Position numbers and translations under genes: made by a program
The notes under the pieces: generated by a model
What the model saw: the letters and a program-made list of their open reading frames with translations, nothing else
What the model was told of the DNA's origin: nothing
The model's database searches: none
IMG/VR virus record: IMGVR_UViG_3300047565_000101
Coordinates: 32,001 to 96,000 of that record
Source of the DNA: a virus
Taxonomy: Duplodnaviria; Caudoviricetes
DNA: 64,000 nt
Reading direction: 5' to 3' (one strand)
Shown here: positions 26,448 through 52,220 of the stretch, piece by piece
Layout: each line of letters opens with the position of its first letter
Position numbering within the stretch: position 1 is the stretch's first letter

Positions 26448-27497
26448 TTAGCTAGCAACCTTAACGTTCTTAACAACGACCCAGGCATCTGCCTGCTCGA
26501 TCTGAACACCAACACGGGTATAGAGTGTATACTCGATTGAGTCCTTACGTGGCCAGAAGAAGCGGTAGACTGTAACGTCACGCTTGATACCAACAACAAT
26601 GTTGTTAGGGAATGTCAAGTGGATGTCACCGTGGCTGCCTGTCTCTCCTGAGTAGTCGCCGTCCTGTGTCTCGTTGAGAAGTGGGACTTCAACAATTGGA
26701 ATACCGAATGCATATGGTGCAACGTAACCAGCTGGGCCACCAAGTGGCTGTACATCGCCACGGATGATGCTTGAAGCAATATCCTGTGGGATTGTCTGGT
26801 TTGTTCCGATGCTGTTTGCATAGAGGAAGTCCTGGATAAGGTTTGATCCTGCAAGGAAGCGAAGGTCTGTGCGACGCTGCTTGTACTTACGTGGAAGTGC
26901 CTTAAGTGCTGAGTTAAAGATTGCACGTGATACTGCAGCTCCGCCAGCGTCTACGACGTGACCATTAGCCTTAGCCTTCTTAACAACACCATCAAATGAC
27001 TTATAAAGTGCATCTGATGTAAGAGCTGTATTACCATTGAGGATTACATCTTCAATGTCGTTACCTGCCTGTGTTGCCATCATTCGTGCGATGTGATCTT
27101 CTAGATCTGGACCCTCGATATTATCTTCGAGTGACTCTGTTGAAAGCTCCCAATCTAAACGGAGCTTCTTTGTTGAGAGAGAAATCTTGGAGAATGTGAC
27201 TGCAGAGTTAGCTGCTGTGTCATCACCTTCGGTTGCAAGCTTCATAAGCTTCTCACCTACGCCAATACGATCAATCTCGGTTGTATCTGACTTCATACGA
27301 ACTGTACGAGCGACCTTACCGATTACGGTAGCGTCGAACATATAGTCTAGGAAGCGAGCTGACTGCTCTGGGTTAAGCAAACCGCCGTTACCCTCAGCAC
27401 CAACATGGATACCTGTTGTAGAATCTGCTGATCCTGACATAGAACCTGTTGCTGTTGTGTTTGCTGCGATTGTTTTTTCTAACATTTCATTGCTCAT
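26448..27497 (-). CDS. major capsid protein (HK97 fold)
   Basis: GGLLNPEQ, ELSTESLEDNIEG and ILNGN motifs; high-expression codon usage. Confidence 0.92.
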   Translation of the reverse strand: MSNEMLEKTIAANTTATGSMSGSADSTTGIHVGAEGNGGLLNPEQSARFLDYMFDATVIGKVARTVRMKSDTTEIDRIGVGEKLMKLATEGDDTAANSAVTFSKISLSTKKLRLDWELSTESLEDNIEGPDLEDHIARMMATQAGNDIEDVILNGNTALTSDALYKSFDGVVKKAKANGHVVDAGGAAVSRAIFNSALKALPRKYKQRRTDLRFLAGSNLIQDFLYANSIGTNQTIPQDIASSIIRGDVQPLGGPAGYVAPYAFGIPIVEVPLLNETQDGDYSGETGSHGDIHLTFPNNIVVGIKRDVTVYRFFWPRKDSIEYTLYTRVGVQIEQADAWVVVKNVKVAS

Positions 27498-32642: not shown

Positions 32643-33527
32643 TTATGTTTGAACATTAAATGCAGACAAGGTACTTCCTTGATCATGACTTGGAACCTTT
32701 ACAATACCAACTAATGTAGTTGCTGGTCTTACTTGAAGATCAGCTGTTGATGTTATTGTGTCTCCAAGCTGAGTCGACATCTGTACATCAGAATATGCTT
32801 TTATAGTTATTTCAGCCCCATTTGTTTGAACTGAAATTGCGGCTGGCAAAGAGCTCAGAGTTACCGAAGACAGGCCGTCTCCAGATGGCTCTTTTCTTAT
32901 CATTTGCAAATGATGCTCGACACCATTACAAGTTGCACAATTGCAAGAGTAAGGATTGCAAGAATAATACCCTCCACATGAAAAATATGTATATGTCGTT
33001 TGGCAATTACATGAGCTTGATGACGTGCATAAGGCAGGCCCTTGATATATTCCAGTTGTTCTGTCATAGCAATCAGAACCGCTTCTAATTGTATTTGAAT
33101 ATCCTGCCCCAGAGCATGAATAAACGTTACAACATGTCTGACAGCTTGTAGAAGAACTACTGCAAGTTTTGCAACTGTCGCAGTAACACGAACTATAACA
33201 GGTACTACAATTGCAACTGTAGGATGTTTGAGACGTATGTGCTACTGCTGCATACCATGAACCAGCAGAAGATATCCAAAATGCTATTCCTGTTCCAGCA
33301 GAAGGTTGTGCTGTTGCTGTAAAGCTAGGCCTAGAAACTTTTACGTATGAAATTGGATATTCTGATGCAGCTGTGCTTGACGATACAGTAGAGCCTGTTG
33401 ATGACCAGATGCCACTTAATTGCTTCCATCCATTTTTTAACCCAGATGATAAACTAAATGAATCAGAAAAATAAGCAAATGCCTTGAGTCTTGATGAGAC
33501 TACTGATCTTCTGCGTGACCTTATCAT
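32643..33527 (-). CDS. virion protein with Cys-rich insert (paralog of the 5680-8280 C-terminal domain)
   Basis: GIAFWISSAGSWYAA vs GVAFWVTSANSWWAA; about 20 Cys. Confidence 0.65.
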   Translation of the reverse strand: MIRSRRRSVVSSRLKAFAYFSDSFSLSSGLKNGWKQLSGIWSSTGSTVSSSTAASEYPISYVKVSRPSFTATAQPSAGTGIAFWISSAGSWYAAVAHTSQTSYSCNCSTCYSSCYCDSCKTCSSSSTSCQTCCNVYSCSGAGYSNTIRSGSDCYDRTTGIYQGPALCTSSSSCNCQTTYTYFSCGGYYSCNPYSCNCATCNGVEHHLQMIRKEPSGDGLSSVTLSSLPAAISVQTNGAEITIKAYSDVQMSTQLGDTITSTADLQVRPATTLVGIVKVPSHDQGSTLSAFNVQT

Positions 33528-34999
33528 GCATCAATATCTCCAGTTAGAATCCATGCGTTAGATGCTCTTTTTTCTAACATTACAGATGAGTACTTAGTTC
33601 TTGATTTTGTATAGCTATCAGTTGAAACTAATGTCGCTGGCGATGTAACGGAAAAGCTTAATCTTCCATCCCCCATTTGTCTGTACTCAATTGTTGATCC
33701 AATTGGAAATGTGGAATCAGTAGCATCATCTGGTATAGTTATCGTTACTGTACTTGAGTTTGTAAACTCTGTAATCTTATAAAGATCTTCAGATGCTACA
33801 GTATGCGACGTTCCAGTAATTGCAGTTCCGTATGATATTAAATTAACAAAATCTTTTGTTGCTATAACTGAGGTATCTACATTAAATGTGTTTGAGGGAT
33901 CTTCCTCTAGTCCAGTCCCCGCTGTTATTACCTGTGCAGCGTTGAACTGAGTATAGGATATATTTGTTGTTCCTATGGTAATGGTGCCAGTTGTACTTAA
34001 TATATACCCATTCCCGCCAAATGTTCCTTGTTCAACAAAACAGAAATCTCCATAAGAAAGCTCTCCAGATGGGGAATTATCTGCGTCTGTTGCTCTAGTC
34101 AAAACCCATGCGGTAGAACTATCACCAACTGTTGTAACGACATATATACCATTTTGCTTAGCATCTGTTTGACTTCTTACAAGAATTCTTTCGCCAGATG
34201 AGACTTCGTGATTATCAATTGTTAAAGCTTCATTTGTTGAATTATTTGTTAATGTAGCGCCAAATCCAGATGTTCCATTGCTATATGTAGCGGACAGATT
34301 GGAGCCTGTTGCACAATGTACCGCTGCATGAAAGTTTAATCCAGAAGCTATGTTATCTACATATGACTTGGTTGCTGCATGTAATGAAGATGTAGGGTTT
34401 GCATGTAATGTGAGAGCTCCTGTCAGAGTTCCGCCAGCAGTCGTCAGAAGTAAAGAAGTATCGGATATGCCATGGACACCAGTTGTATCAGATGAATGTG
34501 AAGAAAGCTCTGAGTCTCTAGCAATTGATGATGGGATTTGTGAATCTGGAATTAATCCGCTTGAATCAAGTGAAGCAACTCCATTTGCGCTGGCTCTGTC
34601 GGATAGAAGAATATAATCTTCAAGGCTATTATCTATATCTCCTTGAGTTATATTTGCGTATGAAAGCTCAGACCAATTGTCACCAGTTCCAAATTTAAAA
34701 TGTAGGGTATCTGTCTCTAATCCTATTTGAGTGGCAAGTAATACTGGGTCCTGTGATGTCCAGTCAGCTGCAGTTTTTCTTACTATTGTTGTTCCGCTTA
34801 CTGTTTCAATTTGCTCAAGTCTATACTCTAGCGAGTCAGATGCGCTGGATCCATTAATTCCAACCTTTGCTTCTATCGCCTCAATTGCATCATATATATT
34901 AGCATGAACCGTAGCATGATTAAATGTTGGTGAATTCAACAAAGAGCCAGCAGGTGGGTTTGAAAATGAATCTAAACTTGTAGGAAATTGAGTTGCCAT
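33524..34999 (-). CDS. fibre-like virion protein with Mtd-N-like module
   Basis: TAADWTSQDPVLL..IGLETDT and AATKSYVD motifs; C-terminal WILTGDI. Confidence 0.7.
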   Translation of the reverse strand: MATQFPTSLDSFSNPPAGSLLNSPTFNHATVHANIYDAIEAIEAKVGINGSSASDSLEYRLEQIETVSGTTIVRKTAADWTSQDPVLLATQIGLETDTLHFKFGTGDNWSELSYANITQGDIDNSLEDYILLSDRASANGVASLDSSGLIPDSQIPSSIARDSELSSHSSDTTGVHGISDTSLLLTTAGGTLTGALTLHANPTSSLHAATKSYVDNIASGLNFHAAVHCATGSNLSATYSNGTSGFGATLTNNSTNEALTIDNHEVSSGERILVRSQTDAKQNGIYVVTTVGDSSTAWVLTRATDADNSPSGELSYGDFCFVEQGTFGGNGYILSTTGTITIGTTNISYTQFNAAQVITAGTGLEEDPSNTFNVDTSVIATKDFVNLISYGTAITGTSHTVASEDLYKITEFTNSSTVTITIPDDATDSTFPIGSTIEYRQMGDGRLSFSVTSPATLVSTDSYTKSRTKYSSVMLEKRASNAWILTGDIDA

Positions 35000-35025: not shown

Positions 35026-35616
35026 TTAAATAGACCAGAACCCAGGAGATATGTACTTATATCCAGATGCTACTGGCATAGACTGATGAAAGAATGGAGG
35101 CTTAGACGGGAATATAACTATGCTGCCTGCTCTAGGCTTTATTGTAATATCTTGATCTTCAAACCTAATATGCCCGCCCTCATAATTATCATTAAGATAG
35201 CATACGACTGATATAGTCTGTGGCCCCTCAGATCCATTTGAATCAGTATGCTTTCCCATTGATGCACCTGGCTTATACTTGCTTATAGAAAGTGGAGCTA
35301 GTTTACCAATTTCAATTCCATGTTTTAGTCCGTAGTCTTCAGACGCTTCTACTATCGCATTAAAAAGCTCCCAATAAATATCGGAATAACCATCATTCTT
35401 TCTATCTGGGCTCAGGTGATCAGACATTCTCTTTTGATAGCCAAATGCTAGACTTTCATTTCCCTCGGCACCAGATGGGTACCAGGTTTTCCATTTTGGA
35501 ATAGTGGAATTAGGATCAGACAAAATATCAAGAAGCTCTATATCTTCAATAATTGATGGTCGAATCATATTATGATATACGTGAATCTTCTCATGAGGAT
35601 ACTCACAATTAAGCAT
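35026..35616 (-). CDS. 2OG-Fe(II) oxygenase, prolyl-4-hydroxylase-like
   Basis: HTD...YLNDNYEGG...H...KY. Confidence 0.9.
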   Translation of the reverse strand: MLNCEYPHEKIHVYHNMIRPSIIEDIELLDILSDPNSTIPKWKTWYPSGAEGNESLAFGYQKRMSDHLSPDRKNDGYSDIYWELFNAIVEASEDYGLKHGIEIGKLAPLSISKYKPGASMGKHTDSNGSEGPQTISVVCYLNDNYEGGHIRFEDQDITIKPRAGSIVIFPSKPPFFHQSMPVASGYKYISPGFWSI

Positions 35617-36337
35617 ACTTATTACCCTTTTCCCATTCTTCTTTTTGTTTGGCTTGAGCAATTCTAACTTGTCGCTCTTCCTCTTTCCATCTTTCAATTG
35701 TTTCATCATCATATTCAAGGTCTGCGAAGTCCCAAAATGAAACCATTGTATATCGTGTTCCCTTTGTAATCTCAGAAACACCATGAAGATTCTCTACTCC
35801 ACCAGGAAAGGTATATAAAGAATATGCATTTGGCTTAAAGGATATGTCATGCTCTGGGAAATAAAGCTGACCTCCTTCATAATCATCATTTAAATATAGT
35901 ATTGCTACATATTTATTTATTTCAAAAGCATTAGGCTCTCCATCATTATTAGAGTTGTCCGAGTGTACATTAGCAAATCCACCAACATCCCATTTCTGTG
36001 CATGCGAAGTGTTTGCACGAACTTCTCTATTAAATACAGATGTCACAGCCTCCTGGAACTTATCTTTAATATCAGAAAAGAAAGTGCCAGTAAGTCCAAA
36101 ACTTTTTAAGAACTCTGGCTCTGCCTTGATGCCTTTACCAGATGATCCATAGAATGCAATATCGCCCCAGTCTATTCCACACTCTTCAAAAAACTTGATC
36201 ATCTTTAATGCGGTTTCTGGCATTACAAAATTTGATATCTCAACAATTTTATTCTCTGGCACATTTAAGGCGCCTTTGCTATTCGGCTCATCCTTGTAGT
36301 AAATGAATTTTGACTTATCTATACTTTCAATGATCAT
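35609..36337 (-). CDS. 2OG-Fe(II) oxygenase, prolyl-4-hydroxylase-like
   Basis: HSD...YLNDDYEGG...HGV...RY. Confidence 0.9.
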   Translation of the reverse strand: MIIESIDKSKFIYYKDEPNSKGALNVPENKIVEISNFVMPETALKMIKFFEECGIDWGDIAFYGSSGKGIKAEPEFLKSFGLTGTFFSDIKDKFQEAVTSVFNREVRANTSHAQKWDVGGFANVHSDNSNNDGEPNAFEINKYVAILYLNDDYEGGQLYFPEHDISFKPNAYSLYTFPGGVENLHGVSEITKGTRYTMVSFWDFADLEYDDETIERWKEEERQVRIAQAKQKEEWEKGNKYA

Positions 36338-37011
36338 GGTTGTTTGTCTCCAGTATGCTTTAATATTGTCCAAAAGAATGGTATTACATATCTAATACCA
36401 GACTCAATCTTTGTAACCCCGTGAATATAATTCATATCTCCTGGAAAGAAGTATGCGCTTCCCTCTTTTGGCTTAAACTGAATTCCCTGATTAGGAAAGT
36501 ATAGCTCTCCGCCCTCGTAATCTTCATTTAAATAAAATAAACCAGCGATATCATACCAAGGAAAGTCATTTGGCTTTCCAGCATTATCACCTTCATGCAA
36601 TTCTTTATCTGCGTGAGGCATTTGAAGTTGACCTGGGAACCATCTTACAATAGCTGGGCTTGTTGGAATAGCATCTACCTTAAAAAAGTTATCTACTTCT
36701 ATTTTTAGTCTATCAACAAGCTTTAGTATTACTCTACTAATCTCTGGGTCCTCTTGGTCTAAAGATCTTCCTGTTGCTACTCTATCTTTCCAATACTCTG
36801 AGTCATAAATTACTGTTCCGTCTTCATTGTAATGCGTCTCAGTCACATCCCAATGAGTTATATTCTTTGCAGCATTAAGCAAAAATCGATGCTCTTCCTT
36901 TGTCATAAAACTTTCTCTGGCCTGAATGTTATTTGAAGAGTCGCCAAAGAATCCTGACGGAGTTATAGAAAATCTATTATTTGAATGATTATTAGAGTAG
37001 TTACTATTCAT
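36334..37011 (-). CDS. 2OG-Fe(II) oxygenase, prolyl-4-hydroxylase-like
   Basis: HAD...YLNEDYEGGE...HGV...RY. Confidence 0.9.
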   Translation of the reverse strand: MNSNYSNNHSNNRFSITPSGFFGDSSNNIQARESFMTKEEHRFLLNAAKNITHWDVTETHYNEDGTVIYDSEYWKDRVATGRSLDQEDPEISRVILKLVDRLKIEVDNFFKVDAIPTSPAIVRWFPGQLQMPHADKELHEGDNAGKPNDFPWYDIAGLFYLNEDYEGGELYFPNQGIQFKPKEGSAYFFPGDMNYIHGVTKIESGIRYVIPFFWTILKHTGDKQP

Positions 37012-37030
37012 ATATCTATTTTACCATTTC

Positions 37031-37762
37031 TTATTCATATGACCTTTTTGACCAAATCTTATTCTTATATACTCCGCCATTTATAACCCTATACTTCTTT
37101 GCATTTTCCATATTGCTTTTAATCATAGAATGATGGTCTGGAACTAAATAATCAGATGTCCAGTCTTCTCTTTTAAATGGAAGCATCTGCGCGTATGGTG
37201 TTCCAGCTGGTATAACTCCAGTCCATCCTTCTCTAATAAAGAATGGCATTGAGCCTGGAAGATTAACCTTGTCATTATCTATAATTCCAGCTACTGTCAT
37301 AAATGGCAGATCATATCTATTGAAAGGTGATGAGTAAAGCACACTATACCCCTCAGGAGCCTTTACAGCCCATTCTGGGAACCAAGCGAAGTGTTCCCTA
37401 TAGAAACCATAGGGGTGCTCGAATTGAGGCATCTGAGGCCTTACAGAGCAAAAATCACGATATCTCTCATCCAATACCCTGCAATCAATATTTCCGTTTT
37501 CATTCACAAAGAACTCTATATCGCATGGTGTTACTAATGCATATCCAGTTGCCATTATATCGAATAACGCTGGACAGGCCTTCCATGTAGGAACCTTACC
37601 TCCGTCTGGACCGATCCAAAAATCATTTGTTCTTGGATCTACTGCAAATCTATCAGCATCACGAAACCATGAAGGAATAAATTTAATAATTGAGCTTGGC
37701 TTGTTTATATCTGATTTATTAAGCCAAGGTCTATTTGCAATAAAATGCATTTTATTCGACAT
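37031..37762 (-). CDS. conserved hypothetical protein (beta-rich; paralog of 52338-53048)
   Basis: KACP..D.MATGY..PCDI, GIIDND and GTPYAQ.LPFKRE motifs. Confidence 0.7.
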   Translation of the reverse strand: MSNKMHFIANRPWLNKSDINKPSSIIKFIPSWFRDADRFAVDPRTNDFWIGPDGGKVPTWKACPALFDIMATGYALVTPCDIEFFVNENGNIDCRVLDERYRDFCSVRPQMPQFEHPYGFYREHFAWFPEWAVKAPEGYSVLYSSPFNRYDLPFMTVAGIIDNDKVNLPGSMPFFIREGWTGVIPAGTPYAQMLPFKREDWTSDYLVPDHHSMIKSNMENAKKYRVINGGVYKNKIWSKRSYE

Positions 37763-38474
37763 GATTTTTCCACTTACTATTGTTGACAACCTGAAGCTTT
37801 AAAGCTTTTACTTCATGTTCTCCGACCTTTTCGCCTTTTTCATTGACTGCATCTCTATACCAGTCTGTCCATTTCCCAGCCTTATTTATTACTTGAGCAG
37901 CTTCGCCATAAGATCTTAATCTATTATTATATTCATCATTTTCAATAAAGTCTAATATCTCTACGGACTCTTCTTTCAAAGATGTTAATGATATAGGTAT
38001 TATAGTTGCAATTGGCTGACCTGCTTTGATTGTAATAACCTTATTTGGCGTTCTAGCTTTTATTGCTAAAGGAAACTCTGCCTCTAGAAATGAAGTGCTT
38101 ATCAATGAAGATATCACTTCAAAATCTTCATAAAAATAGTTCTGCGGAGTAATTGTTAATACGCTTATATTTTTATCTGACCTCAATATTAAACCAGTAT
38201 TAAAGCTTACACTAGACTGCCCTCTGCCTGTATATGTTTTATCAGCACCGTCTAATATTTGAATATGGTCTGATCCAGTATCATTTATGCCATCCCAAAT
38301 AAAACTAACGTCATAAGGGGCAGAAAGAGTCCATCCGATAGTATTTGCAGTTGTTACAGGATAGCAATGATATGCATGTCTGGCTGGTGTTTCCTCCATC
38401 CAGTCTCTTTGAGCTGATAACGGCTGTATCACCAGAGCATCATCGTGTCTTTTGTATGCCCTTAATATAGACAT
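37752..38474 (-). CDS. DUF6065-like protein
   Basis: RDWM...AYHCYP..AN..GW and GQPIA motifs. Confidence 0.6.
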   Translation of the reverse strand: MSILRAYKRHDDALVIQPLSAQRDWMEETPARHAYHCYPVTTANTIGWTLSAPYDVSFIWDGINDTGSDHIQILDGADKTYTGRGQSSVSFNTGLILRSDKNISVLTITPQNYFYEDFEVISSLISTSFLEAEFPLAIKARTPNKVITIKAGQPIATIIPISLTSLKEESVEILDFIENDEYNNRLRSYGEAAQVINKAGKWTDWYRDAVNEKGEKVGEHEVKALKLQVVNNSKWKNHVE

Positions 38475-39157
38475 TAAGATCCAGTTTCTTGATAGAACTC
38501 TGGCTTGTGATACTTATCGCTGTAATCAAGCATTGTTACTAATGAATACTTTGTGCCACTAAGTACTTTCTTTGCCTGATGAGGATACATAAAGTTTGAT
38601 GGGAATAGTACTGTGTCTCCAGCCTTTGGCTTGTAGTTTACTCCCTGGAGCCTGAAGAATATTTCTCCACCTTCATAATCGTCATTCAAATATGTAACAA
38701 GAGAAAGTGTGCAATTATAGGAATATCCATGATCATGGTGTTCCATAAAGTGCTGACCTTCTCCATATCTAATAAAATTAAAAGCTTCCCAATATCTTAA
38801 ATTATTGATGTTAAATCTTTTTGAGTAGTCTTCTACGGCTGGAAACTGTGCATCATAGCAATCTTGCCATATTTGCTGAAGCTTAAGAGAGGCATCTGAA
38901 GGATCCCCAGCTATATCTGATTTCTTAAACTTAAAGTCAACGCAATCTCTATACTCTGGCATTCTCTGTCTATATCCGACATATGCATCTTCCCACTTAT
39001 ACTGATTAGCTTTACTATTTAGAACATCTTCTAATCTATTAATAACATCAAGCTCTGGCTTTACTGTATCATGATAGACTAAAATTCCAGCACCTACTTC
39101 TTCTACACTACTCCATGTTGGAACTATAGTTGAGCTATTTGATGCATTTACATCCAT
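38474..39157 (-). CDS. 2OG-Fe(II) oxygenase, prolyl-4-hydroxylase-like
   Basis: HHD...YLNDDYEGGE...FPSNFMYPH...KY. Confidence 0.9.
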   Translation of the reverse strand: MDVNASNSSTIVPTWSSVEEVGAGILVYHDTVKPELDVINRLEDVLNSKANQYKWEDAYVGYRQRMPEYRDCVDFKFKKSDIAGDPSDASLKLQQIWQDCYDAQFPAVEDYSKRFNINNLRYWEAFNFIRYGEGQHFMEHHDHGYSYNCTLSLVTYLNDDYEGGEIFFRLQGVNYKPKAGDTVLFPSNFMYPHQAKKVLSGTKYSLVTMLDYSDKYHKPEFYQETGS

Positions 39158-39897
39158 TATATAACCTGTCCATTCTGATTAATTCTAACACCATAAAGAT
39201 TGTCTTTATGGGCTAAGTCATTGATATCCATCATTACAACTACGCAATACTTAGTTCCAGATTTAATTGGAAGTGATGCATGCTCGTATGCATAGTTAGA
39301 TGGGAATATTGCTATATCTCCATACCCTGGCTTTACAGTAGTATTATCAAGTCTAGGGAAAAATATCTCTCCGCCCTCGTAATCTTCATTTAAATATATT
39401 ACAGCAGATACTGCACACTTATACATAGGTCCATCATCTGCATGGATTCTAAAGTGCTTGCCCTCTCCTTCATACTTTACAAAGTTAAAGATCTCATAGA
39501 AATTAACATTAATTCCCCAGTATCTTGCGTAGTCATCTACGCATCTTCTAAGTCCATTAAAAATCTCATCATAGATTTCATGTAGCTCTGCGTTTGATTC
39601 ATTCTTTTCTCCGAGAGACTTATGATTCATTTTAAAATCAACACAATCTCTTGCCTTCTTAACAGGAGCATCATCATTAGTCACTTTTGCTTCGTTCCAT
39701 CGATATGAACCATTGCTATCAAGATACTTATTTAAAACATCAATATACTTGTCAATCTTATCTTTAGAAAATGCATGATGATAAACATTAAGCCCAAAAC
39801 CTGGATTAGATACACGAATTCCATCAAAATTTTTATCTGGCATTCTTGTGCCAGTAGACTCTGTTCTATCTTTTTCAAACCACTCGTTATTTTCCAT
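39157..39897 (-). CDS. 2OG-Fe(II) oxygenase, prolyl-4-hydroxylase-like
   Basis: HAD...YLNEDYEGGE...FPSNYAYEH...KY. Confidence 0.9.
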   Translation of the reverse strand: MENNEWFEKDRTESTGTRMPDKNFDGIRVSNPGFGLNVYHHAFSKDKIDKYIDVLNKYLDSNGSYRWNEAKVTNDDAPVKKARDCVDFKMNHKSLGEKNESNAELHEIYDEIFNGLRRCVDDYARYWGINVNFYEIFNFVKYEGEGKHFRIHADDGPMYKCAVSAVIYLNEDYEGGEIFFPRLDNTTVKPGYGDIAIFPSNYAYEHASLPIKSGTKYCVVVMMDINDLAHKDNLYGVRINQNGQVI

Positions 39898-39966
39898 TGT
39901 AGCCTCCAATACACATTATAGCATTTGTGATTTTCGGTTACAATAGGTTTTAATGCAGTTTATAGC

Positions 39967-41226
39967 TTATGAGATGACTATATTATTTTCTGCAATATAC
40001 CACTGGTATGGTGTAGTTCTGATGTCGTACACATCTCTATTTACTTCAACTTGAATAGAGTCAACCTTAACGCTTGATATAGTTTTATTTTCTACATCAA
40101 TATTAATTATTGTGTCTCCAATTTCAATTTCAGCAACCAACAGATTGATGAATTTTCCATCTCTATCTACGATTATTGGCTGAGCTGCGGAGTAGAAAAC
40201 ATTTGTATCGTTAAATGCGATTACATCCTTGACATCCTTGTCTACACTGACGACATCAATCTCAATAAAGCTTATATTTGAATCAGTAGGAGTATCAATA
40301 ATATTATCTCCATCTAATCCAGCTGGATCAATTGTTAAAAGTTTATCTCCAGCTTGAATTAGCTTTGCTGCTACATAGCCTCTATCTGCAGTTAATATGC
40401 GTGTTTCGCCATCAATACACTTATATCCCTTAAAGTATGGGAAGTATGGGCCAAATGAAGGCGGGAAGTATGGGAATGAAGGTGGGAAAAATGGGAAGTA
40501 TGGAAAGTAAGGTGGGAAGTATGGTGGGAAGTATGGGAAGAATGGGAAGTATGGAGGGAAGAATGGCGGGAAGAATGGTGCTGTCGTTGTAATACTGTTT
40601 GAGTTTGCTGAATAAGCAGCGCTTCCATTACCATTTGTAGCAAGAATCTGATATGTTTGAGCTGTTCCAGCTGTTTCATCAATTGTACGTGATGTAGCAG
40701 AAGCATCCGCTGAATATGTTGGTCCGTCTGAAGACTTAATTGTGTATCCAGATATAGCTTTTCCGCCTGTTGCTGGAGATGCCCATGATACAACATCTTG
40801 ATTAGCATTTGGAGATGTAGCTGTTGGGGCAGACATAATAGCTGGAACAGTTGTAACAGTTACAGATGAAGATGTCACAGAATCTGATGATCCAGAAGCA
40901 TTTACTGCCACTACTGTAAATGTGTATGCTGTGTCTGACTTTAAACCCTCAAAAGTATATACAGTTGAATTATCTCCAGTTTCAACCGTATAAGTTGTTG
41001 GAGTTGTTGTAATTGTATAAGATGTAGCAGGAGGAGATGTTAGTGGAAGACCCCACTGTATTTCTACTGCACCTCCAGTTCCAGATGCGCTGGCAGCAGA
41101 TGTTGTATTTGCTGTAGCCAAATATGGTCTATTTGTTCCAACATCAGTGACAGTTAATGAGGTTACTTCCGATGGCTCTAAAAAGTCATTGGATTGAGAT
41201 GAATGTCTACCTGCTCTTTTGCTCAT
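39967..41226 (-). CDS. FN3-repeat protein with Pro/Phe/Tyr tract and C-terminal Hint domain
   Basis: FN3 motif GLKSDTAYTFTVVAVN; PFFPPFFPPYFP tract; Hint blocks CIDGETRI..G...A..I..GD and VYDI...YIAENNIV. Confidence 0.8.
   Translation of the reverse strand: MSKRAGRHSSQSNDFLEPSEVTSLTVTDVGTNRPYLATANTTSAASASGTGGAVEIQWGLPLTSPPATSYTITTTPTTYTVETGDNSTVYTFEGLKSDTAYTFTVVAVNASGSSDSVTSSSVTVTTVPAIMSAPTATSPNANQDVVSWASPATGGKAISGYTIKSSDGPTYSADASATSRTIDETAGTAQTYQILATNGNGSAAYSANSNSITTTAPFFPPFFPPYFPFFPYFPPYFPPYFPYFPFFPPSFPYFPPSFGPYFPYFKGYKCIDGETRILTADRGYVAAKLIQAGDKLLTIDPAGLDGDNIIDTPTDSNISFIEIDVVSVDKDVKDVIAFNDTNVFYSAAQPIIVDRDGKFINLLVAEIEIGDTIINIDVENKTISSVKVDSIQVEVNRDVYDIRTTPYQWYIAENNIVIS
40432..40578 (-). repeat. 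low-complexity coding repeat of (Y/F/S)FP(P) units
   Basis: Tandem degenerate CCATACTTC / CCATTCTTC units. Confidence 0.9.
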
Positions 41227-41266: not shown

Positions 41267-43147
41267 TTATGCCGTAAGATCGCCATAAACAAGCCATGTA
41301 TTTGTATCACGCTTGAATAATGTCGCTGTTGACCATTGGGTTCTAAGTTTTAGTCCTGGAGTTGAATTTACTGTAACTCCAGAGTCTCCAGCAATTGTAA
41401 CCTGCCCAGTAGATGTCTGGCAAATATCAATTGATGCTCCAATTGGGAAGGCCACGGCTGAATTTGTTGGAATTGTAATTGTAGTTCCAGATGAAGAAGC
41501 TACCTCGATCATAGAGTCTCTTTCGCTTAGACTTGAAAGAGTATATGATTCAGTCTTATTAATAATAGGAGTTCTTGAAGGAACACCTTCCTTTGTCTGC
41601 GCTCCGTCAGAAAATTCAATTCCGCCGACCTTCATGGTGTCATATGTGACTCCAGAAAAATCAATTGCGTTATCTACTGGCTCTGGGGCATTAGAAACCA
41701 ATTTCCATTTTCCGTCTGAAGCATCACGAACAACACCTGTGTGGAAATGTCCAGTCTGAACATCTCCATATGCACCAAATATACCAATATCTAGAGCGTC
41801 TGTATCAAACTGCTCTGATGCAAGATATATAAGTGAGTCTGTGACCTCAAGGTTTGCTGTATCGACTGTAGTTGTAGTTCCATTAACAGTTAGGTTTCCA
41901 GTAATTGTTAAGCTGTCTACTGTTCCTCCTGCAGTTGTAAGAAGAACAGATGTGTCAGCTATACCGTGAATATCGGTTGTGTCAGAAGCATGTGATGAAA
42001 GAGTTGACGATGAAGCCTTTGCATCTAGTTGTGTCTGAATTGCAGAGGTTACTCCGTCAAGATAAGATATTTCTGTTGCAGAAACAGTTGATGATGATCC
42101 AGTTACTTTTTTAAGTTCAAAACCAGTATTTCCGTAGCCATCATTATTATATGAGTATGTTTCGTCAATTGTTGCATCAAGTGATCCGAACACGGTATCT
42201 ATGTTAACTACTGTCCAAACCTTTGAGTTAATTTCTGTTTCACCGCTCTTATATGCTTGAACTGTGTCTCCAACTTGGACTCCAGCACTATTTGGGAACG
42301 GATACTTATAAAAGTTAATTCCAGTAACACCTGCTGAAACAGGGTAAGTGGAAACTTCAAAACCTGTTTCTGTTCCAACGACAGTGTATCCAGAACTAAC
42401 GGTTATTGTAGGGCTAGAGAGAGTCTTATTAGAAATAGTCTGAGTTCCTGTTGTTGTAACAAGAAGGGACGTGTCTGCAATTCCATGAATATCTGTTGTA
42501 TCAGTAGCGTGACTTGAAAGAGATGTTGATGAAGCCTTTGAATCAAGCTGAGACTGGATTCCAGAAGTAACTCCATTTATATAGCTAATTTCAGTTGAAG
42601 ATACATCTCCAATTGTAGTTGTTGAAGGAAGAACTACGTCTCCAGTAAATGTTGGACTTGCCTTGGGAGCTTTTGCTGCATCTAAATCTGATATATCTGT
42701 TGTATGACCAGATACTGTAGATGCTAATGTTCCAGCAGCAGTATTAATATCTGATATATCTGTTGCAATTCCAGTTACTGTTTCTTCAAGAGTTCCAATT
42801 TGCCCTGATAGATCTTCATCTAATGCGTTTACAGCGCTTGTAACGCTAGAAACTGTAGCGTAATAAGTATCATCAATTTGTGTATTTGGAACTTTTGTAC
42901 TTGAATTAAGTGATGCAACACCGTTTGCAGCACCTCTATCTGATAGCAATATATAATCTTCAAGCGATGTGCTTAGGTCTGCTGGTGTAGTATTAGCATA
43001 GTCTGTGATGCTATTCCAGTTATTGCCATTTCCAATTTTAAATTGAAGTGTATCTGTTTCAATACCAATTTCACCTGCAAGCAATACTGGATTTGCGCTT
43101 GTCCAGTTTGCAGCGGTATCTCTTCTAAGTTGAATTCTAATTGCCAT
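41267..43147 (-). CDS. fibre-like virion protein with Mtd-N-like N-terminus
   Basis: IQLRRDTAANWTSANPVLLAGEIGIETDT; C-terminal WLVYGDL. Confidence 0.75.
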   Translation of the reverse strand: MAIRIQLRRDTAANWTSANPVLLAGEIGIETDTLQFKIGNGNNWNSITDYANTTPADLSTSLEDYILLSDRGAANGVASLNSSTKVPNTQIDDTYYATVSSVTSAVNALDEDLSGQIGTLEETVTGIATDISDINTAAGTLASTVSGHTTDISDLDAAKAPKASPTFTGDVVLPSTTTIGDVSSTEISYINGVTSGIQSQLDSKASSTSLSSHATDTTDIHGIADTSLLVTTTGTQTISNKTLSSPTITVSSGYTVVGTETGFEVSTYPVSAGVTGINFYKYPFPNSAGVQVGDTVQAYKSGETEINSKVWTVVNIDTVFGSLDATIDETYSYNNDGYGNTGFELKKVTGSSSTVSATEISYLDGVTSAIQTQLDAKASSSTLSSHASDTTDIHGIADTSVLLTTAGGTVDSLTITGNLTVNGTTTTVDTANLEVTDSLIYLASEQFDTDALDIGIFGAYGDVQTGHFHTGVVRDASDGKWKLVSNAPEPVDNAIDFSGVTYDTMKVGGIEFSDGAQTKEGVPSRTPIINKTESYTLSSLSERDSMIEVASSSGTTITIPTNSAVAFPIGASIDICQTSTGQVTIAGDSGVTVNSTPGLKLRTQWSTATLFKRDTNTWLVYGDLTA

Positions 43148-50747: not shown

Positions 50748-51380
50748 TTAAAATACATCTGGCTCTGACCAAACAAATGCTGGTAATGCATACCTCGTAG
50801 GACCAGGACCAACTTCTTTTACGCCATGCCAATACTCTTCCGTAGAAGGAAATACAACCATGCTTCTTCTTGGAGGCCTAATAGCAATTTGTTTTTCTGA
50901 GAAGTAAAGCTCCCCATCAGTATAGTTATCGTTTATATATATTACAGCAGCCCACTTCATTTTATCGTCTACGTATTGATCATAATGACCTTTTAGCTCA
51001 GATCCAGTATACTGTCTTTGGATAACACCAAAGGATCTAAATGAGTATTCGCAGTCCTTATCAAATAATGCCTTTAGCCTTTGATCTAGCCTATATTCTC
51101 CAATAATTCCAGCAACGTAAACCACCTTATCGTTCCAATTATGAGTTACCTCAAGCTTTGTTTCATTCAGATCTCTTGTGCCGTATCTAGACTCTGATCT
51201 ATCTTCTATGCCCTTTACGTAGGTTCCCAGCCAATCTTCTTGTGTTCTAGTTTCAGCAAAATTATATAAAAATTCGCATTCTTCTTCTGTTATAAAGTTT
51301 TTAATCAAGAATACGTTTGGGTCAAGCTGCTCAAATTCAAATCCAGCATCCTGTATATTTTTAGCATTAATTTCAGACAT
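50748..51380 (-). CDS. 2OG-Fe(II) oxygenase, prolyl-4-hydroxylase-like
   Basis: HYD...YINDNYTDGE...HGV...RY. Confidence 0.88.
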   Translation of the reverse strand: MSEINAKNIQDAGFEFEQLDPNVFLIKNFITEEECEFLYNFAETRTQEDWLGTYVKGIEDRSESRYGTRDLNETKLEVTHNWNDKVVYVAGIIGEYRLDQRLKALFDKDCEYSFRSFGVIQRQYTGSELKGHYDQYVDDKMKWAAVIYINDNYTDGELYFSEKQIAIRPPRRSMVVFPSTEEYWHGVKEVGPGPTRYALPAFVWSEPDVF

Positions 51381-51438: not shown

Positions 51439-51591
51439 ATGCAGACAAATAAAAAAGTTGAGATTGTAGCAGAAAAGCTGCGTCAACTGGTTCCTGACTT
51501 CACAATGTCAGAGAGCTATGTCAATGCCGCACAAATAATAGATGCGGTAGAGTCTGTAAATACAGAAGAGATTTGTGAGCCTACAGCATGA
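51439..51591 (+). CDS. small hypothetical protein (50 aa, leaderless)
   Basis: TGGTATAAT upstream; ATGA overlap with the methyltransferase. Confidence 0.5.
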   Translation: MQTNKKVEIVAEKLRQLVPDFTMSESYVNAAQIIDAVESVNTEEICEPTA

Positions 51592-52220
51592 TTAAGTATC
51601 CAAGTGGTAGCTGGGAAACCGACTTAAAAATTCCAGGAAGTTTTGTTAGAGACTATAATGATCTTATTGAAAATATTCTACAAGTAGATTCACCAATAAG
51701 ATTCTTTAAAAATGAAAGACTTTACATTCTATGGGCATATGCTCAGCACCTAGCTGATCTGGATGGCGACTTTGTTGAATGTGGAGTATACACTGGAACA
51801 TCTGCATTCTTTATGGCAAAACATTGCAAGACTAATCTTCATCTTTTTGATTCCTGGGAAGGTGTTAAAGATTTTACTGAATTTGACAATGATTTCTATA
51901 GAGAGAACTCATTTGAGATAAGCATTGATGCAGCTAAGAATACATTAGACTCTTTTGACAATGTTATCTTCCATCATGGAGAAGTTCCTTTTGAGTTTGA
52001 TCAGGTAGAGAAGATATCATTGCTTCACATTGATCTTGATAACTATAATCCAACAAAAATTGCGTTAGAGAACCTTTGGTCAAAGGTTATCGATGGCGGA
52101 GTTGTAATAGTAGATTTTCATGACTCATTTGCAACTGGTGCTGAGAAGGCAACAAGAGATTTCTTTGCAGATAAAGATATCTTGTTAATGCCTACTGGCA
52201 AAGCCATTATAGTAAAATGA
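51588..52220 (+). CDS. TylF/MycF/NovP-family O-methyltransferase
   Basis: GDFVECGVYTG, LFDSWEG and LLHIDLD motifs. Confidence 0.85.
   Translation: MIKYPSGSWETDLKIPGSFVRDYNDLIENILQVDSPIRFFKNERLYILWAYAQHLADLDGDFVECGVYTGTSAFFMAKHCKTNLHLFDSWEGVKDFTEFDNDFYRENSFEISIDAAKNTLDSFDNVIFHHGEVPFEFDQVEKISLLHIDLDNYNPTKIALENLWSKVIDGGVVIVDFHDSFATGAEKATRDFFADKDILLMPTGKAIIVK

Follow-up and report, generated by a model that had tools for sequence, protein, structure and literature searches.

The closest described counterpart of the system presented here is found in the chlorovirus PBCV-1, which reportedly encodes a prolyl 4-hydroxylase (P4H; A085R) acting on the virus's own proline-rich repeats, as Eriksson and colleagues are said to have described in 1999. 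We compare with it a locus in 64,000 nucleotides of DNA (the window: bases 32001–96000 of the 104.8-kb IMG/VR record IMGVR_UViG_3300047565_000101, estimated to be 97% complete) from an uncultured lake phage, in which the gene for a 419-residue protein, P0002, with FN3 domains, a tract of proline, phenylalanine and tyrosine and a C-terminal Hint domain, is followed on the same strand by a cassette of five 2-oxoglutarate (2OG)-Fe(II) oxygenases and two DUF6065-type proteins (Table 1). In both cases a virus encodes a collagen-type P4H-like 2OG oxygenase together with proline-rich repeats, which are the substrate in PBCV-1 and the proposed substrate here. However, PBCV-1, a giant virus of the eukaryotic kind, has a single enzyme, repeats of the (Pro-Ala-Pro-Lys)n type and genes that are not adjacent, whereas the phage and its relatives have five to nine oxygenase paralogues and two DUF6065 proteins in a cassette directly behind the substrate gene, a proline-aromatic repeat and a Hint cap.

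Several other systems resemble parts of this locus. In the Skp1 pathway of Dictyostelium and Toxoplasma, prolyl hydroxylation by PhyA is followed by sugar transfer by Gnt1 (PMC3515798, PMC11570480). The same order, with a P4H-type oxygenase preceding glycosylation of hydroxyproline, applies to plant extensins and hydroxyproline-rich glycoproteins, and would find a likeness in relatives of this phage whose cassettes include a PF11397 protein (L063) or a GT61 glycosyltransferase with a nucleotidyltransferase (L037). The candidate substrate here is nevertheless a repeat tract and not the single proline of Skp1, and it lacks the Ser-Pro(n) motifs of extensin. The arrangement also recalls clusters for ribosomally synthesized and post-translationally modified peptides (RiPPs), with the substrate gene first, same-strand tailoring enzymes next and a proteolytic or self-cleaving step, and in some relatives the likeness extends to radical SAM/SPASM enzymes and Cys-rich tails. 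It is not a RiPP in the strict sense, though, because the substrate is a 419-residue protein with folded FN3 domains, encoded in the virion module, with no leader, recognition element or exported small product. An earlier interpretation made from the letters of this DNA (the sequence-only reading) had spoken of a RiPP-like or extensin-like pathway; the first label fails for the reasons just given, and the second because the P0002 tract contains no Ser-Pro(3-5) motifs, its grammar being P(P)-[FYS]-F instead.

The Hint domain of P0002 has a fold in common with the BIL domains of Clostridium thermocellum (2lwy) and Tetrahymena (BUBL BIL2; 6y75) and with the Hedgehog HhC domain (1at0), in which the Cys at position 1 likewise abuts the released domain. 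All are terminal and non-splicing, with a thioester that is resolved by water or another nucleophile, as we propose also for P0002. For instance, Tetrahymena BIL2 transfers its N-extein to a lysine, forming an isopeptide bond (PMC8616854). Unlike these domains, the P0002 Hint lacks the block B His, the terminal His-Asn and a C-extein, and its N-extein is a proline/aromatic repeat on a phage fibre-module protein. A further likeness is to the Peptidase_S74 intramolecular chaperones of phage tail spikes and fibres, where the C-terminal domain of a fibre-module protein is also expected to remove itself, but these use a Ser-Lys dyad, whereas the P0002 Hint has another fold and would use thioester chemistry.

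Our reading of the locus, to which we assign a probability of roughly 0.5, is that P0002 serves as an appendage protein of the virion, with a tract that the phage's own battery of enzymes hydroxylates and that autocleavage of the Hint domain exposes. P0002 would be made as a precursor belonging to the tail-fibre module and then be matured in two ways. On the one hand, the five PF13640 collagen-type prolyl-hydroxylase-like oxygenases would hydroxylate prolines within the P(P)-[F/Y]-F tract of 49 residues, different paralogues probably serving different sequence contexts or ring positions; hydroxylation would make a very hydrophobic polyproline-type rod soluble and stiff, and in the relatives the hydroxyls would also give sites for sugars, sulfate or methyl groups. 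On the other hand, the Hint would, through Cys270, carry out an N-S acyl shift at the Lys269-Cys270 bond, and resolution of the thioester, most simply and probably by water, would yield an FN3-FN3-tract protein of about 269 residues in which the tract is the free C-terminus, the 150-residue Hint being discarded. Taking the parts separately, we think it rather likely that the tract is a substrate of the oxygenases, with proline as the presumed site of modification, and lean slightly towards cleavage by the P0002 Hint. As a whole the sequence-only reading is partly supported, and the comparative support is strong. Adhesion, camouflage and grazing resistance, the roles that it had suggested for the decorated virion, are conjectural.

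The tract is set apart from the rest of P0002 by its composition. Its 49 residues comprise 20 Pro, 18 Phe, 8 Tyr, 2 Ser and 1 Gly, arranged as 14 units of P(P)-[F/Y/S]-F, whereas the protein outside the tract has 4% Pro and 2% Phe, and the underlying DNA repeats with a period of 42 nt, or 14 residues (Tandem Repeats Finder). The sole Cys of the protein, Cys270, lies at the junction with the Hint domain (KGYK/C270IDGETRILT, the slash marking the junction). A word-indexed search returned more than 476 homologues of P0002, all metagenomic and of the same architecture, and tract length in the relatives ranges from about 20 to 163 residues, often stepping by 14; matches from a phmmer search with P0002 across the whole library were dominated by giant multi-FN3 proteins. 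The elements listed by the sequence-only reading could all be located: FN3 domains, a tract of about 50 residues with about 20 Pro and GYK/CIDGETRI at 39967–41226 are present as it stated, as are a Hint that keeps its N-terminal Cys and ends IVIS without His-Asn, and five same-strand HxD...H 2OG-Fe(II) oxygenases downstream, all of them above the Pfam cut-off and with intact triads. The two proteins that it had called beta-rich unknowns are a DUF6065 protein and a divergent paralogue.

Evidence connecting the tract with the enzymes comes from comparison of about 180 related contigs. Loci were seeded on P0002, the DUF6065 paralogue and oxygenase 2, contigs with divergent members were added, and open reading frames (ORFs) were classified by phmmer against the window proteins. 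Among the non-duplicate, enzyme-seeded IMG/VR loci that extend 1 kb or more upstream, a same-strand ORF with a Pro/Phe tract lies within 1.5 kb upstream in 86 of 98; nine of the 12 exceptions have such an ORF 2–5.5 kb upstream, beyond inserted genes, and the other three have too little flank. Starting from the other side, the cluster lies directly downstream at every locus seeded on a Pro-rich member, including members 24–43% identical to P0002, and consists of four to nine oxygenases, usually with two DUF6065-type genes. The adjacency of tract gene and cluster persists despite reshuffling of gene order within the cluster and swapping of C-terminal modules. Co-occurrence across phage genomes was the check that the sequence-only reading had proposed for itself, and its outcome is that a gene with a Pro-rich tract precedes the oxygenase cluster wherever the flank suffices. 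A scan of contigs from metagenome-assembled genomes (MAGs) with DUF6065 returned phage-like contigs only, from MAGs of five phyla, and there too a Pro-rich tract gene is followed by the cluster. Among these are short phage-like contigs (L180–L187) binned into MAGs of Acidimicrobiaceae, Flavobacteriales, Luteolibacter, Beijerinckiaceae and Bacteroidia; they are almost certainly mis-binned phage DNA, and the MAG labels are therefore uninformative on the host.

A natural control is provided by relatives with Pro-poor tracts ('PFGxFGF', e.g. PFGVFGFS), which retain the FN3 region, the position in the fibre module and even the Hint. When contexts with at least 5 kb of downstream sequence are considered, 97 Pro-rich members have the cluster and none lacks it, whereas five Pro-poor members lack it and none has it. 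In the five Pro-poor contexts (L012, L019/L020, L171/L172, L173 and L174/L175) the PF13640/DUF6065 cluster is replaced by one to four small genes, followed by ribonucleotide reductase; among the replacement genes of L012 are one for a protein of the Asp/Asn beta-hydroxylase family and a weak match to sulfotransferases. A tree of the FN3 region (MAFFT, FastTree) has the Pro-poor forms at three separate places, for which parsimony gives three changes, and two of these places have local support of 0.81–0.99. Tracts with more prolines also tend to be accompanied by more oxygenases (Spearman 0.44, n = 69, not phylogeny-corrected). Oxygenase clusters in relatives without such a substrate, the case that the sequence-only reading had set against itself, thus number zero among the five Pro-poor members; its claim that the tract is the hydroxylase substrate is supported as far as tract proline content and cluster co-vary without exception, and the assignment itself continues to be drawn from comparison.

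Since phenylalanine remains abundant in the Pro-poor tracts, the pattern suggests that proline, and not the aromatic residues, is what matters. It would be very surprising, then, if the oxygenases acted on the tract aromatics (Phe/Tyr beta-hydroxylation) or on residues outside the tract, even though 2OG oxygenases that beta-hydroxylate amino acids exist, Phe and Tyr together account for 26 of the 49 tract residues, and members of the TauD and Asp/Asn beta-hydroxylase families occur in the cassettes of some relatives. Tracts such as 'PFGVFGF' lack a PF13640 cluster despite their phenylalanines, and the PF13640 enzymes and their nearest solved relatives are prolyl or lysyl hydroxylases.

The same comparison bears on the idea that the oxygenase/DUF6065 cassette is an auxiliary island acting on other virion or host proteins, nucleic acids or small molecules, and is adjacent to the tract gene through synteny and linkage. 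Orphan 2OG-Fe(II) oxygenases are common in aquatic phages without such tracts (e.g. PMC3037559), lone PF13640 genes are found at other places in this genome and in Pro-poor relatives, and the evidence all comes from a single lineage. In a few relatives plainly metabolic genes also occupy the slot, namely GMP reductase and a pyridoxal phosphate-dependent Cys/Met enzyme, to which the short-chain dehydrogenase/reductase (SDR) discussed below may be added. We consider an auxiliary island unlikely, however, given that the two-by-two table of proline content and cluster is free of exceptions with switches at three positions on the tree, that adjacency survives both gene-order reshuffling and C-terminal module swapping, that the genes inserted in relatives are mostly of protein- or glycan-tailoring types, and that the closest solved enzymes are peptidyl hydroxylases.

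The five PF13640 genes of the cassette score 34–56 bits against a Pfam cut-off of 27, and in an alignment of six sequences the HxD...H residues (H156, D158 and H210) are invariant, with a basic 2OG-binding K/R in SGT[KR]Y. Oxygenase 2 matches the P4H structures 3itq/5hv0 in the PDB (E 4e-4 with the single sequence, 6e-5 with a profile) and also the mimivirus lysyl hydroxylase 6ax6; the family profile of oxygenase 3 matches prolyl 3-hydroxylase 1 (P3H1, 8k0e; E 6e-7), P4H (E 6e-5) and PiuC; and oxygenase 5 matches a PKHD hydroxylase and the lysyl hydroxylase LH3 (E about 1e-3). All of the closest relatives with solved structures are peptidyl hydroxylases (Pro/Lys) of collagen-like substrates, and the PBCV-1 P4H was not among the PDB sequence matches of oxygenases 2, 3 and 5. 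The leaning of some paralogues towards P4H and of others towards P3H hints weakly at differing regiochemistry. Between the precursor gene and the enzymes we found no attenuator or terminator that would set a RiPP-like expression ratio (intergenic RNA fold z -0.8; promoter and terminator scans at shuffle level). The 57 nt that separate the precursor gene from oxygenase 1 do contain a promoter-like site at 39915–39943 on the minus strand (TTGTAA, a spacing of 17 and TATAAT, with an upstream TG), followed by GGAGG and ATG 39897, but we treat it as no more than a lead, since sites of this kind number about as many in the region as in shuffled sequence. About 10 kb from the cassette, at 50.7–52.2 kb, a sixth oxygenase and a TylF-type O-methyltransferase form a divergent pair; they may be displaced members of the cassette, since both gene types ('O6' and TylF) sit inside the cassettes of relatives.

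On its own the P0002 sequence gave only weak evidence for a Hint domain (PT-HINT E 0.004; Intein_splicing E 0.008; BIL 2lwy E 0.26), and for this reason 27 related C-terminal domains were gathered and aligned with the window's own (alignment A2, 28 domains). Searched against the PDB, the A2 profile finds 2lwy, a Clostridium BIL domain, with an E-value of 6e-13, and over a dozen mini-inteins as well. An AlphaFold2 (AF2) model built on A2, with a mean predicted local distance difference test score (pLDDT) of 89.8, is matched by Foldseek to BIL2 (6y75, Tetrahymena), inteins and Hedgehog (1at0/6tyy), with E-values down to 5e-7 and TM-scores of about 0.7. At the level of the family, the profile and model matches settle the predicted Hint fold of the C-terminal domain, weak as the signal from P0002 alone is. 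The domain retains Cys1 of block A and the Asp of block F (VYDIR). In block B the TxxH motif reads SAAQ, without the His, and the protein ends NNIVIS and a stop codon. As there is neither a terminal His-Asn nor a C-extein, splicing is excluded, which leaves N-terminal acyl-shift chemistry as the one possible activity.

A similar picture emerges when 154 distinct family members of the Hint domain are compared. A Cys opens 126 of them and a Ser 27, so that a nucleophile is present at position 1 in 153, while the terminal His-Asn is retained in 38, where it is followed by one to four further residues (some members terminate ...THNK, with a single residue after the His-Asn). Block B has a His at its fourth position in 53 domains, a Gln in 94 and a Glu in 4. 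An N-terminal nucleophile that is kept next to C-terminal machinery that decays is as expected if cleavage or transfer at the junction of tract and Hint is the retained function. Friedel et al. found that bulky residues at the -1 position are able to make up for a lost block B His in the N-S acyl shift (PMC6333167). In our family a bulky -1 residue accompanies block B Gln in 75 of the 94 domains, which by analogy is suggestive, though only that, of compensation for the lost His; P0002 itself has Lys at -1.

What replaces the Hint in other relatives was scored in 105 complete, distinct proteins from related loci. The same slot is occupied by a Hint in 34 and by a Cys-rich tail (3–12 Cys within 7–59 residues) in 38, and in the remaining 33 the protein ends with the tract, which stops 1–43 residues before the stop codon, mostly within 20. 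Judged by their sequences, these tract-terminal relatives look like a hard-wired form of the proposed Hint cleavage product. The claim of the sequence-only reading that the tract becomes exposed as a C-terminus gains from them and from the conserved nucleophile, while the cleavage step is one that we infer.

The alternative that the Hint is inactive, and stays in place as a structural or binding tip or a docking module interchangeable with the Cys-rich tails, would make the tract an internal linker. Block B of P0002 and its missing His-Asn agree with this, as does the prevalence of block B Gln in the family, and the presence of Cys-rich, knot-like tails in the slot of 38 relatives resembles an exchange of terminal binding modules. 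We find it doubtful nonetheless, since the family keeps a nucleophile at position 1 almost without exception, and P0002 has it as the only Cys of the protein and keeps the block F Asp; the tract-terminal form in 33 relatives speaks against it as well, and a lost block B His can be offset by bulky -1 residues (PMC6333167), which predominate here. By analogy with Hedgehog, which uses cholesterol, and with BIL2, which uses lysine, the Hint may also pass the thioester-activated C-terminus of the hydroxylated tract to a specific nucleophile, such as a lysine of a virion protein or a host-envelope component, and so anchor the appendage covalently. We regard such a transfer as improbable; under it, relatives with Cys-rich tails would achieve anchoring in another way, by disulfide or thioether.

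The tract and Hint also occur together elsewhere. Larger fibre-like proteins of 874–1106 residues in relatives (L007:2566-5190, L021:1911-5231 and L142:2-2827) end in a proline/aromatic tract and a Hint of their own, some with a 'PTFPTFPTF' variant, and the combination is thus a portable C-terminal module that is not confined to the FN3 protein. In two other loci (L008:12106-13290 and L011:17353-18522) a second, near-tractless FN3-Hint paralogue comes after the cassette and is followed by another PF13640 oxygenase.

Several points weigh against a hydroxylated and autocleaved appendage. The similarity of the oxygenases to solved P4H, P3H and LH enzymes is weak (E 6e-7 to 1e-3), and PF13640 enzymes act also on non-protein or non-proline substrates. 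Without the block B His (SAAQ) and the terminal Asn the P0002 Hint may, to judge from its motifs, be slow or inactive, so that even its cleavage activity is presumed, and since a Cys-rich tail replaces the Hint in 38 relatives, a free C-terminus of the tract is not universal. The placing of P0002 in the virion follows solely from its position in the fibre module, and our proposal gives no reason for five to nine oxygenase paralogues or for two DUF6065 proteins. Tract and cassette adjoin within one broad lineage, and recombination of linked modules would therefore give the same co-variation with no coupling of function; in addition, the switches seen at three places on the FN3 tree do not count as strictly independent. 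Finally, no GenBank phage matched the region (megablast) or P0002 (tblastn), and no relative in culture is known.

Genes lying between the tract gene and the oxygenases, or within the clusters, were counted as accessory, and in the relatives they are mostly of types that tailor proteins or glycans (Table 1). The PF11397 protein belongs to a Pfam family that we take to be built around the Skp1 hydroxyproline GlcNAc-transferase. Oxygenases of the TauD and Asp/Asn beta-hydroxylase families and a glutathione-peroxidase-like protein are also found in cassettes of relatives, many of which are closed by the SDR. The cassette of this phage is without any accessory type seen in relatives, and the SDR is not present in the phage. 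Searches of this genome for glycosyltransferases of the GT2 (PF00535) and PF11397 families were negative, the PF11397 positive control also giving no signal. In one relative (L108) a tract protein with a 4-Cys tail stands beside a radical SAM/SPASM gene, an arrangement that recalls thioether-forming peptide maturases.

The two DUF6065 genes sit between oxygenases 2 and 3. The divergent paralogue falls below the Pfam cut-off (DUF6065 E 0.19), and its atlas neighbours are DUF6065 clusters. An AF2 model of the DUF6065 protein (pLDDT 88.2) aligns with dUTPases with VIA-align Z-scores of 10–11 over 112–132 residues, and all 14 entries with Z of at least 8 have the dUTPase fold (dUTPases and herpesvirus dUTPase-like proteins); Foldseek matches the same fold with an E-value of 5e-5. 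Sequence identity to dUTPases is 9–17%, and a profile search of the PDB reached just E 0.5, to the WSSV dUTPase. We are highly confident that the model describes a dUTPase-like barrel, a statement about fold alone that does not class the protein as a dUTPase. A cupin or double-stranded beta-helix oxygenase fold had been expected for DUF6065 and was ruled out by this model. Invariant residues of the protein include R23, W25, H33, R84, H220, E221 and K223. Its role in the cassette is probably non-oxidative, and binding or scaffolding would be a guess. In the literature on DUF6065, hydroxyproline in phage virions and actinophage 2OG oxygenase clusters we found no description of the P0002 system or of DUF6065.

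Table 1. Coordinates of features in the window, and location of accessory genes in cassettes of relatives
Feature	Position	Strand	Basis or remark
Mtd_N-type tail-fibre gene	41267–43147	-	Pfam Mtd_N E 9e-15; PHROG tail-fibre families; synteny
Precursor gene P0002, 419 aa (two FN3, Pro/Phe/Tyr tract, C-terminal Hint)	39967–41226	-	ORF, translation
FN3 domain 1, aa 50–115	40882–41079	-	Pfam PF00041 E 1.2e-10, above cut-off
FN3-like domain 2, aa 135–209	40600–40824	-	PF00041 E 0.0015, 19 bits, sub-threshold, 75/84 model positions
Pro/Phe/Tyr tract, aa 217–265, proposed hydroxylation substrate	40432–40578	-	Composition; 42-nt period
Cys270 codon, Hint position 1, proposed N-S acyl-shift nucleophile	40417–40419	-	Sequence
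Hint (BIL/Hog-like) domain, aa 270–419	39970–40419	-	Profile against PDB, AF2, Foldseek
Oxygenase 1, PF13640	39157–39909	-	Pfam E 1.9e-10; HxD...H + K; probable start ATG 39897 after GGAGG
Oxygenase 2, PF13640	38474–39157	-	Pfam E 1.1e-14; nearest solved is Bacillus anthracis collagen-type P4H
DUF6065 protein, predicted beta-barrel + C-terminal helix	37752–38474	-	Pfam PF19541 E 8.7e-30, 104 bits against cut-off 26.6
Divergent DUF6065 paralogue	37031–37789	-	phrog_7084 E 3e-30, the PHROG common to both DUF6065 genes; probable start ATG 37750
Oxygenase 3, PF13640	36334–37011	-	Pfam E 4.2e-8; catalytic triad retained; profile nearest prolyl 3-hydroxylase 1
Oxygenase 4, PF13640	35609–36373	-	Pfam E 5.2e-8; catalytic triad retained; probable start ATG 36337
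Oxygenase 5, PF13640	35026–35784	-	Pfam E 1.6e-14; catalytic triad retained; probable start ATG 35616
Second fibre-like gene, cassette end	33524–34999	-	PHROG tail fibre / head decoration families; synteny
Sixth PF13640 oxygenase	50748–51380	-	Own-genome search, above Pfam cut-off
TylF-type O-methyltransferase	51588–52220	+	Own-genome search
PF11397 GlcNAc-transferase-family protein	L063		Between tract gene and oxygenases
GT61 glycosyltransferase + sugar nucleotidyltransferase/HAD protein	L037		
Sulfotransfer_2 proteins	L125, L136		
TylF O-methyltransferases	L107, L100		
Radical SAM/SPASM genes	L107:3891-4958, L108:3005-4006		Between tract gene and oxygenases
SDR (adh_short, about 222 aa)	42 loci, e.g. 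L110:14929-15594		Closes cluster in many relatives

The surroundings of the cassette are those of a structural module, with every gene from 1 to about 48 kb carried by the minus strand. The major capsid protein (26448–27497) is about 58% identical to that of Streptomyces BE-cluster phages. Fibre-type genes were recognised by Pfam and PHROG on both sides of the block of P0002 and the oxygenases, and synteny places an Mtd_N-type fibre gene before the precursor gene in almost all relatives, in which Peptidase_S74 fibres also adjoin the cassette. Just past the second fibre gene lies the gene for a 294-residue protein (32643–33527, minus strand) with about 20 Cys in its central segment (CNCSTC...CNCATC), a homologue of which is located after the cassette in L014.

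Few unexplained genes are as common in the genomes of aquatic phages as those for 2OG-Fe(II) oxygenases, and the P0002 system ties a conserved battery of these enzymes to one concrete, adjacent candidate substrate. With relatives that have Pro-poor tracts and no battery as a natural control, the function becomes directly testable by co-expression and mass spectrometry. If our reading is true, this would be, to our knowledge, the first case of hydroxyproline formation on a structural protein of a bacteriophage. It would also represent a new class of proline-aromatic repeat material and a new use of the Hint domain, that of capping a virion protein until it is removed; should the Hint instead transfer the tract, the phage would encode an ATP-independent protein ligation together with a battery dedicated to forming hydroxyproline. 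Protein engineers, too, could find the enzymes and the self-cleaving tag of interest. For the phages themselves, the cassette would be a modular tailoring platform, to which relatives add sugar, sulfate, methyl and radical-SAM steps.

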